DNA of 62,337 nt, filler included, from Hausera hauseri (lineage: Eukaryota), in assembly GCA_046269625.1 (NCBI GenBank). It is 12 parts of 12 records of this genome, joined end to end, with 100 filler letters (N's around TTAATTAATTAA, not from the genome) between each part and the next. Parts side by side here need not be neighbours in the genome. Positions count along the whole stretch, not along the records: positions 9,454 to 14,914 come from JBJURY010249403.1; 11 more parts are not named here. One strand, 5' to 3'. Position numbers and translations under genes: made by a program. The notes beneath the pieces were generated by a model. The model saw only the letters and a program-made list of their open reading frames with translations, did not search any database and had not been told where the DNA came from. Every line of letters starts with the position of its first letter. Within the stretch, counting starts at the first letter, position 1. Below, one piece after another: positions 12,358 to 14,914 of this stretch.

Positions 12358-14914
12358 TCACACTGGAGATGAGCGACCCTGCTCATCTTTTGATTTATTG
12401 AGGAGGTATGCCACAGATTTGCTATATCGATTTCCTTGAGGCGATATATAGATTATTGCGTTGATTTCGCATTTTTCTCCTTGAATCTGTGTGAACTGGT
12501 CAATTTCGATTTTTGGCGAACCTACGATTCTGGTTGCTTTTGGTGAGGAAATGTTTTTGAGCCGCTTGGGAGGAGAGGGTTGTAAGAAGGTGAACGAAGT
12601 AGAAGTCGAGAGTTCTTGTTGTTGTAAATCAAGGGGTGATGATGAAGGCGTTGTGGAAATTGAGGCTGCGGATTCTTTTGTTGGTTCCAAGGGAGAAACA
12701 GAAGGCAAGGTGTCGAAAGAAGTTTCCTTCATTGGTTCATTCGGCTTAGGTTTTTCTGGTAAGTAATTTTCTTGATGGTCTAAGTCGGTTGAAGGTGTAG
12801 ACTTTACAGACATGCTAGTTCTAATGTCCGGGGATACATCATCACGGTAGATGTTTATGGATTTATATGCTTTTAAATAAGCTTGGGCTAGTGGAAGTGC
12901 TCGCATGGTGAAATTTCGGGTTTGTTCGACTTCCATAGCAAATATGCGAGTGTTTTCGGAATTGAGAGATTTGTACTTATTTATCAATGGTTGATAGTAC
13001 ATTAAATCTCTCAATCCTTGGACGAATAGAAGGTCAATTTGGAATAAATGTTCGATGGCATAAGCTAATTGGCAACCCACAAGTATTTTCCCTTTTATTA
13101 AGCTTAGTATAATTTTGCGAGCCTCATAGTAATCTGTTTTTCCCCTAATATCCGTTTCCTGAAGGCCCGTCAAATGGGTGTCGTAGTTTTCGATCTTTTC
13201 ACGTGGGGTTATTAGCTGATTCATAATTACTGATCCTTGGAGAGTAATTATTGCAACTTCTATTGGGCATGCTAATTTTTTTGGTTGAAGTGCAAATATT
13301 ATTGCGAATATAAGTTGTTCTTCTTCCTTTATTGAAAGATTTCGTATGAAGGAGATTCCTGTTCTTATGTTTGGAATTGGAGTCATTAATTCGAATTTCG
13401 GCTTCGGGGTGTTTGTTGGGATATATATATTTTCCTGTTGCATGGCCTCAATTCCCAACAAGGCGCGTTCGGTATCTAAACGGATTAGGAGTTTCCTTTG
13501 GTGTCTGAGGGTTTGATAAATGTTGATGGTATTTTTGGGTATCAAGGACATGGTTTCGGTAATTTCTTTCTTTAGTGCGTCTTTTACCACTAATTGGATA
13601 TTACCTCGTACTATGGATATAATGATGTTTTGGAGTTTCGGAGTATATTCTATTAATGTTTCTAGTGGAACACAGCAAGGGTTTTCCATTCTTAGGATCG
13701 TAAGGGTGCGTTGTTCCACTTTATAACCTTTAAGGTTGTTTGGGATTGACGCGGCGTTTGGAAAGAAAAGCCTCGAGGTCTTTTCATGAAGAAGGTGACG
13801 CTCGAGGTGATTATAAAAGGCGGCGGCTCTCTCCTCTTTGTTGACGAATTTTTGGACTAAAAATATAAAGATAAACCATGCGGTAGCCCAAGTTAAATGG
13901 GTCGCCTGAGTGTCGATGACTTTTAACTTGGTCATCGATGCTTCGACGGCCGAATTTTTATGTTGATCATTCTCACAGTTCATCTCTGTAGGAGATTCAG
14001 TACCTCTTTTGTTATTCATTTTATTGTTGATATGGGTACCATCTTCCTGAGTATGATTATTTTTAATTTTGCATTTTCGTTTACAACAGCATCCTAGGAT
14101 TATTAGTATGATTATGCCTATTATGATCGATATTAGTGATGAAATCAAAATAGTTAACCTCGAAGGTTTGGGAGTTATAATAGGGATTTGTTTGTTGTTC
14201 TTTTCTAATGTTTTGATTTTAGTGTTTAATTTTGATTTTGCAGTTCGCACTCGCATCACTCGTCGATAGATCATTCTTTCACTGTTATCAACTTCTTTTA
14301 GTATAATTAAATAGTCTTTATTTGGAGATAATGAGACACATGGTGCGATTGGATATTCGAATGTTAAATATCCTTTGTCGATTCGGTTTTTAGCTTGAAA
14401 GCATTCGAATATTACTTTATAAAAGTATCGACTTTTTGTTATACTAAACACAATGGAAGTATCGAAGGATTTTATGTTTAAATTGTTCCATAGTTCTTGG
14501 ATTTTCTCTGTCGTAGTCTTAAACATGGCTGTTTTAATTGTGGTACGGGTAGTACTAGCTGTTAGAATTATTGTGGCTGTCATAGTTTGATTCCTAGGCG
14601 GAATCTTTATTTCACGTTTTTGGTATATAATCATTTGTTTCCACTGACCTCTTATTGCACGATATAAATCAAAACGAATTTGATATGACTCACCATATTT
14701 TACTTTACAACATTTAATCTGCGGCGTATAGTGACTAAACGCACAATATTGATAGGGTTCATCATCTTGTCCTTTTGAATTTATTCGTTTTATGATTATC
14801 TCTCTTTGTTTGTCCACCTTTTTGTTTATTTGGAATCTTAAACAACTATTGATTTGGTCAAAATCCAATATCTGTATATTATTGTAGAGAAATGTTTTAT
14901 CTTTGTCTTTTTCT
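12358..14914 (-). CDS. Intact membrane protein of at least 836 aa: two FN3-like modules, TM helix, DEDDh (REX4/ISG20-like) exonuclease-like domain, S/T/P-rich tail; 5' end probably truncated
   Basis: SLSPNKDYLIIL..VRT (FN3-like); LTILISSLISIIIGIIILIILGCCC followed by KRKCK; EVAII..G.VIMNQLITPREKIENYDTHLTGL..KGKILVG..LRDL (REX4-like). Confidence 0.7.

Follow-up and report, generated by a model that had tools for sequence, protein, structure and literature searches.

A candidate membrane-tethered pseudo-nuclease encoded at the probable 3′ end of a Burro-like giant Ty3/gypsy element in Hausera hauseri

Introduction

What kind of gene places two extracellular-type domains, a predicted membrane-spanning helix and a nuclease-like domain in one open frame, and is the joined protein made? 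Both questions are raised by a minus-strand frame in the Hausera hauseri assembly GCA_046269625.1. It lies in what we call the window, the whole stretch of 62,337 nucleotides (filler included) that was analyzed, which concatenates short contigs joined by N44-spacer-N44; the contig that holds the frame occupies ~9454–14914. We give about an even chance to the complete reading developed below, in which the ORF forms the 3′ end of a giant Ty3/gypsy element, multicopy and Burro-like, and encodes a fusion of a membrane protein and a pseudo-enzyme that acts as a non-cutting, RNA-binding adaptor.

Results

The open frame and its predicted membrane layout

On the minus strand, an open frame of 851 codons plus the stop runs from 14913 to 12358 (Table 1). 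This openness agrees with the 2.5-kb intact ORF described in an initial annotation, but the contig edge at 14914 truncates the frame at its 5′ end, and no start of its own is present. Since the contig ends inside the frame, the 851-aa ORF is 5′-truncated and the gypsy pol fragments at 15–18 kb are unlinked to it. The term “intronless”, also used initially, holds only as a description of frame openness; of the eight public runs that contain part of the ORF, none is recorded as RNA.

Table 1. Coordinates in the window of the features of the ORF and of its LTR-like end.
Feature	Position	Strand	Basis
Open frame, 851 aa, 5′-truncated	12358..14913	−	reading and layout of relatives
Ectodomain beta-domain 1, aa 5–108, weakly supported as FN3-like; a relative of the post-integrase domain at 48042–48359	14590..14901	−	
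Ectodomain beta-domain 2, aa 136–228, Cys pair and L-x-P-x-x-x-Y; FN3-like by weak evidence	14230..14508	−	
Predicted TM helix aa 253–274 and juxtamembrane CCCKRK aa 275–280	14074..14157	−	hydropathy
Open linker of 72 codons, replaced in relatives by a stop and intergenic DNA; M299, M311 and M327 inside	13858..14073	−	
Splice-acceptor-like site closing the linker, top-scoring in the ORF	AG ending at 13857	−	
Predicted AlkB-like double-stranded beta-helix domain, aa ~341–495, no HxD; family motif IPNxLK	13429..13893	−	
ISG20/REX4-type DEDDh domain, aa ~529–691, five catalytic positions all non-catalytic	12841..13329	−	
Ser/Thr/Pro-rich low-complexity tail, present also in family members	12361..12840	−	sequence
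Purine-rich PPT-like tract before the LTR candidate	11729..11740	−	inferred from sequence
Candidate 3′ LTR, 250 bp, TG...CA, imperfect terminal inverted repeat, AATAAA near end	11479..11728	−	

Hydropathy analysis gave a single strong hydrophobic segment, at aa ~253–274, with no other 19-residue window reaching a KD of 1.6; a second TM at aa 342–356 was considered and dropped, its hydropathy lying under the threshold. The TM helix and CCC-KRK motif proposed at the outset are thus recovered as one predicted helix followed directly by CCCKRK, the Cys cluster of which we presume is likely to be palmitoylated. The ectodomain had been called FN3-like, and this description is borne out in part: ESM feature matches to fn3 clusters (0.80–0.83, a lead only) and ectodomain profile matches to IGF1R (E = 0.023) and fibronectin (E = 0.28) are consistent with it, whereas Pfam returned no fn3 match in the ORF protein, and we regard FN3 identity as a weakly supported, sub-threshold lead.

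Pfam applied to the whole 851-aa protein gave no useful match, RNase_T included. Word-index protein searches with the ORF product at near, shorter and longer lengths likewise returned no match; the longer range covered 1524–4350 aa only, and its null speaks only weakly against other fused forms.

A dispersed repeat with an LTR-like end

Read depth was taken from four of the eight public runs (X1–X4), and X5–X8 (share 0.06–0.09) were left out. In X1, depth was ~1–70 in bins from 9643 to 11462 (mostly 4–16) and 150–10,600 over 11463–14914, where these values are summed contig depth and not copy number. A total of 3923 contigs in this run matched at 80–100% identity over the whole stretch. X2 repeated the depth step, while X3 and X4 were sparse. 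With the depth step and many diverged contigs found in both X1 and X2, the locus is a dispersed multicopy repeat.

Depth fell to the flank level just past the 250-bp LTR candidate, which, judged from one end of a single copy, we read as a putative 3′ LTR. Rfam gave no match on the ORF contig and so lends no support to a hammerhead/Penelope end. A separate short repeat occurs at two contig ends (9461–9572 and 41–164, 93% alike), with a depth of ~156,000 in X1.

Among the 40 best-supported of 821 variant rows, 30 fell in the ORF, and of these 19 were synonymous, 22 were at third positions and none created a stop. This pattern suggests purifying selection, in a set that consists of the 30 best-supported coding rows of 821 and is not random. 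The indels listed in the stalk and the tail appear to compensate for one another.

These data bear on the possibility that the frame is an exon of a conventional host gene, which the initial annotation had named as one case that would overturn its reading, or else a decaying relic with no function. The exonuclease domain is indeed of the host REX4/ISG20 type, and the neighboring elements in the window are broken. Against this stand a depth hundreds-fold over the flank, many diverged copies, the LTR-like end, homologues in retroelements (below) and the synonymous bias of the ORF variants, and we consider both versions very improbable.

A cytoplasmic module of two predicted enzyme folds

When aa 519–708 were searched in isolation, they passed the profile check that had been suggested for an RNase_T/REX4 domain, scoring 25.6 bits against PF00929 (RNase_T; cut-off 24), and they matched ISG20 at E = 2.5e-6 and ISG20L2 as well. 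A structural model of the module built from a 32-sequence alignment reached a pLDDT of 83, compared with 33 for a single-sequence fold, which was unusable. In the model, aa ~529–691 resembled ISG20 (Z 17.1, rmsd 2.4, 153 residues aligned), so that profile and predicted fold both point to a DEDDh domain. The cytoplasmic part had been annotated as this domain alone; the model added a second one, missed initially, at aa ~341–495, which resembled ALKBH7 (Z 12.6, rmsd 2.8, 143 aligned) and has the double-stranded beta-helix with N-terminal lid of an AlkB-type fold. Cupins were also among its Foldseek matches.

None of the five DEDDh catalytic residues (four acidic metal ligands and a general-base His) is present. 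Residues 533–546 contain no acidic residue, in keeping with the loss of the first D-x-E motif noticed initially, and the same fate has befallen motifs II and III: the other positions are A619, M670 and L675, and the catalytic columns read I or A, I or gap, A, M and L. The nuclease domain, which had been proposed as perhaps catalytically dead, almost certainly is dead.

The HxD...H iron triad is the motif of AlkB-type 2OG-Fe(II) dioxygenases. In the ORF protein, no HxD/E occurs in aa 405–432, and among the relatives one was found somewhere in the corresponding span in 3 of 33, not in one column. The family keeps IPNxLK; 29 of 33 members have a His where the ORF protein has S433, and in 31 of 33 the last strand bears an acidic residue.

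Compared with known enzymes, aa 529–691 share sequence and fold with ISG20, ISG20L2 and REX4, but the module differs from these in lacking all five catalytic residues, in having the extra AlkB-like domain and in being element-encoded. With ALKBH7, ALKBH5 and viral AlkB the predicted fold is shared over ~143–153 residues (Z ~12), whereas identity to AlkB-family dioxygenases is ~10%, there is no Pfam match and HxD is missing at the expected strand.

An unnamed protein family with intact and dead branches

A phmmer search of 1.84 billion representatives returned 69 matches, none of which aligned before query residue ~361 and none of which covered the ectodomain-TM part. The best were proteins of ~350–870 aa that spanned query aa ~362–720. 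About 45 of the 69 belonged to an unnamed family or were fragments of it, and the remainder were ordinary REX4-like proteins; no informative name was found in any of the 30 family clusters looked up.

We compared 40 element-type domains long enough for a tree (P0026 fell below this length, and several fragments were excluded). All five active-site residues are kept in 25 of them, and at least four are lost in the other 15, the ORF protein included. A quick tree separated the 15 dead members, which have long branches, from the intact members (SH-aLRT 94); this fits one or several inactivations. These results suggest that giant Burro-like retroelements have an unnamed family of accessory proteins in which an AlkB-like fold is joined to an ISG20/REX4-type nuclease, with intact and dead branches. 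Other architectures were seen as well: P0063, a dead family member, carries a C-terminal RING finger, and P0013 and P0036 each have four tandem REX4-like domains.

Relatives lie downstream of the integrase in giant gypsy elements

A metagenome scan with five intact members yielded five loci (L001–L005); a first metagenome scan had yielded none, and scans of viral_contigs gave no confirmed locus. Two of the five, L001 and L004, encode polyproteins of >3000 aa in the order env-PR-RT-RH-IN. The frame continues past IN through a hydrophobic, signal-like stretch and two domains of beta type to a TM, a short tail and a stop. The exonuclease ORF is separate, beginning 963 nt past the stop in L001 (with a further coiled-coil-like ORF between) and 337 nt past it in L004. 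In L005, a signal-ectodomain-TM ORF ends 193 nt before the exonuclease ORF. At L002 and L003 the upstream DNA is too short to give an ORF layout, which leaves three informative relatives. Coiled-coil-rich short ORFs, recognized by eye and with no Pfam match, lie before the exonuclease ORF in L001 (9207–9875) and after it in L004 (11571–12008). At ~4090–4680 (+) the L004 polyprotein has one more signal peptide-beta domain-TM module, which sits between protease-like domains and is akin to the domains found after the integrase.

In L001 and L004 the env, a Monjiviricetes-type fusion protein, precedes PR, and no fusion-protein Pfam match was found in the ORF. The initial annotation had likened the ectodomain to an env-slot gene; in the relatives the env slot is taken upstream of the protease, and the ORF's membrane protein would instead occupy a second, post-integrase membrane slot. 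The ORF contig ends at 14914 before any integrase, so the linkage of the ORF to the PR-RT-RH-IN unit seen in L001 and L004 would follow from the layout of these relatives. By the same analogy, the ORF likely encodes the C terminus of a giant gypsy polyprotein. The earlier proposal of retroelement cargo gains from both lines of evidence, namely a high-copy repeat with an LTR-like end and relatives that follow the integrase in gypsy elements. The pol at 15015–19000 was rejected as belonging to the parent element, as it lies on another contig and its pieces are only 25–41% identical to L001/L004.

Direct similarity to the L001 and L004 ectodomains was weak or absent. An HMM built from five domains did not match this ectodomain, hhalign gave probabilities of 0.8% and 6%, and 473 of 1000 (L001) and 47 of 1000 (L004) whole-ectodomain shuffles reached the score. 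Given this weak direct similarity, it is chiefly on position and layout that the match of the slot rests.

A related domain is found within the window. The ectodomain had been said to resemble the gene at 48003–48700, and it does (1 of 500 shuffles reached the score of ectodomain 1 against the 48-kb domain), but modestly (blastp E = 3e-4, 21% identity over 119 aa). On that contig, which starts at 46171, an element at 46171–48458 has RH/IN pieces 34–50% identical to L001/L004 (RH 47–49%); after these come a signal-like stretch and the relative of ectodomain 1. The whole of 46171–49837 (+) reads as a broken, L001/L004-related gypsy element with RH-IN, the signal-like stretch, two ectodomain-like beta domains and DUF3522 (E = 1e-9), a multi-TM host domain in the same post-integrase slot that we take to be of the TMEM8/myomaker family. 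An EGF domain suspected before DUF3522 at 48.8 kb had no Pfam match. The cargo of the post-integrase slot appears to be swapped between elements: L001/L004 carry a short tail there, the 48-kb element a domain of the TMEM8/myomaker family, and the ORF a dead enzyme pair.

The domain order of L001 and L004 fits that of Burro elements as far as the available part of the Burro/GYPSM1 account describes it: one giant polyprotein with SUMO/ubiquitin-like and BCL2-like regions, an in-frame env of mononegavirus type preceding the protease, and accessory ORFs (PMC6431247). The ubiquitin/SUMO-like match is weak and was seen in L001; in both loci a region aligns with the Bcl-2-like segment of the window, with no Pfam match of its own. 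That segment belongs to the contig at 1–4489, which carries Bcl-2-like, env and protease pieces and is the only one with a BCL2 Pfam match, a weak one; at 116–3910 (−) these form a broken Burro-like piece with the order Bcl-2-like, Monjiviricetes fusion glycoprotein, then aspartyl protease. As a difference, the same part of the Burro account mentions neither a post-integrase signal peptide-FN3-like-TM module nor an exonuclease ORF (PMC6431247). Burro-like elements, known from planarians, have a total length of 25–30 kb and long LTRs; the LTR candidate here has only 250 bp. We hold with high confidence that the element is a multicopy Burro-like giant Ty3/gypsy retrotransposon.

Are the membrane protein and the module made as one?

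Because the membrane and exonuclease ORFs are separate in all three informative relatives, tethering depends on read-through of the linker. A linker of 72 codons stayed open by chance in 0.42% of 20,000 base shuffles, and the matching frame in the relatives carries stops (47 in 321, 11 in 112 and 6 in 64 codons). None of the 37 linker variants listed in X1 and X2 creates a stop, a zero that is not significant alone since only ~1.4 stops are expected among them, and neither run lists a linker indel at 15% or more. Synonymous changes account for 11 of the 37, near-neutral against an expected 25%. No stop follows the TM, so polyprotein translation would run into the AlkB/exonuclease module. We think the odds are slightly in favor of the tethered fusion protein actually being made.

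The same region can be read as yielding two products, in which case the FN3-TM part ends the polyprotein, the dead module is mainly soluble and is expressed via the acceptor at 13857 or from the start M327, and the linker is incidental or cleaved. The separate ORFs of the relatives speak for this, as does the fact that in L001, L004 and L005 the start codon of the exonuclease ORF stands directly, or at most 2 bases, after an AG. Among the 133 AGs of the ORF, the acceptor-like one here ranks first; it precedes a conserved FY motif by 13 codons and is within 1 base of the position of L004's acceptor and ATG; its tract is near invariant among copies, M327 has no listed variant and the linker amino acids are near-neutral. 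In this copy, though, the acceptor-like AG has no ATG after it, and the start would need to come from an upstream exon. The rarity of such openness by chance, the lack of any listed stop or frameshift in two runs, and the entry of any polyprotein translation into the module also count against two products, an outcome that we regard as possible and rather doubtful. The tethered fusion may in turn not extend to every subfamily, as matching ends upstream of ~13970 in many diverged contigs.

Two further candidates in this region were dropped. One was a poly(A) signal, since the AATAAA of the linker is likely due to chance in A-rich DNA; the other was a short intron between M311 and the acceptor, since both M311 and the donor-like GT that goes with it differ from copy to copy.

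A possible RNA-binding role for the tethered protein

If the fusion is made, the layout of L001 and L004 suggests that an internal signal peptide would lie just past the contig edge, where signal peptidase would free a type I membrane protein. The double pseudo-enzyme would then be displayed on the cytosolic face and would bind RNA without cutting it. Element RNA, or RNA 3′ ends, might in this way be held at membranes where particles assemble; alternatively, RNA ends might be shielded from host nucleases and small-RNA silencing. Provided that the tethered protein exists, such an adaptor function seems to us an evenly balanced proposition. Maelstrom and EXD1, as described in the available parts of two sources, offer a precedent as inactive DEDD derivatives that keep RNA binding, but they are host piRNA-pathway proteins from other DEDD branches and neither element cargo nor type I membrane proteins (PMC5408684, PMC4408791). 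BURRO1 is PIWI-silenced in planarians, according to the part of the report available (PMC8532177), which supplies a motive, not evidence, for an anti-silencing role; use of an exonuclease against host immunity has a precedent in the arenavirus ExoN, again in the available part of its source (PMC7968707).

A tethered module could also serve as a decoy or scaffold for host RNA-decay or piRNA factors, or the ectodomain could signal to the module in a receptor-like manner. That both active sites are gone, that the His of 29 of 33 family members is replaced by S433 and that 15 divergent members survive as a dead group are all compatible with this. The known relatives of both folds bind nucleic acid, however, and we judge these roles unlikely.

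Should the fusion be expressed, it would combine a receptor-like layout with an intracellular pseudo-nuclease, and it makes testable how giant elements handle their own RNA and evade host silencing. A broader and more tentative proposal, which we put forward as a possibility short of an even chance, is that of a clade of giant env-bearing invertebrate retroelements with a second, modular membrane slot behind the integrase, filled here by a receptor-like protein with an FN3-type ectodomain and an RNA-capturing double pseudo-enzyme that would act as a matrix-like packaging adaptor or anti-silencing decoy and would derive from a so far undescribed family of active AlkB-fold/DEDDh accessory nucleases.

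Retroelement cargo of this general kind is known. In the bdelloid Juno/Vesta LTR elements and Terminons, a DEDD exonuclease is encoded by a separate ORF3 downstream of pol; in the part of the account available, this ORF3 product is RNase D-like DEDDy, with intact residues and no TM (PMC5408684). What is new here is that the domain is of the ISG20/REX4-type DEDDh class, is joined to an AlkB-like partner, is doubly dead and is in frame with a TM. Our literature search returned no description of such fused AlkB/DEDDh membrane cargo; the original Burro description was outside that search and may overlap with ours. Grohme et al., in 2018, are said perhaps to mention an AlkB-like domain in some Burro elements.

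Other features of the window

No tRNA genes were found within the window. A T-rich low-complexity region with long N runs (41176–46122) gives spurious long ORFs. An exon of a host gene, Integrator subunit 2, lies at 20661–21401 (−) (E = 4e-29). The contig at 26947–32468 has ribosomal S11-like, terminase-like, lysozyme-like and tail-like ORFs, named by eye; it looks bacterial or phage-derived, which indicates that the assembly mixes organisms. ORFs at 24350–26547 resemble Polinton-like fragments by look, and the stretch at 4590–9353 is Polinton-like, with matches to protein-primed DNA polymerase B and endonuclease VII at 5907–7613.
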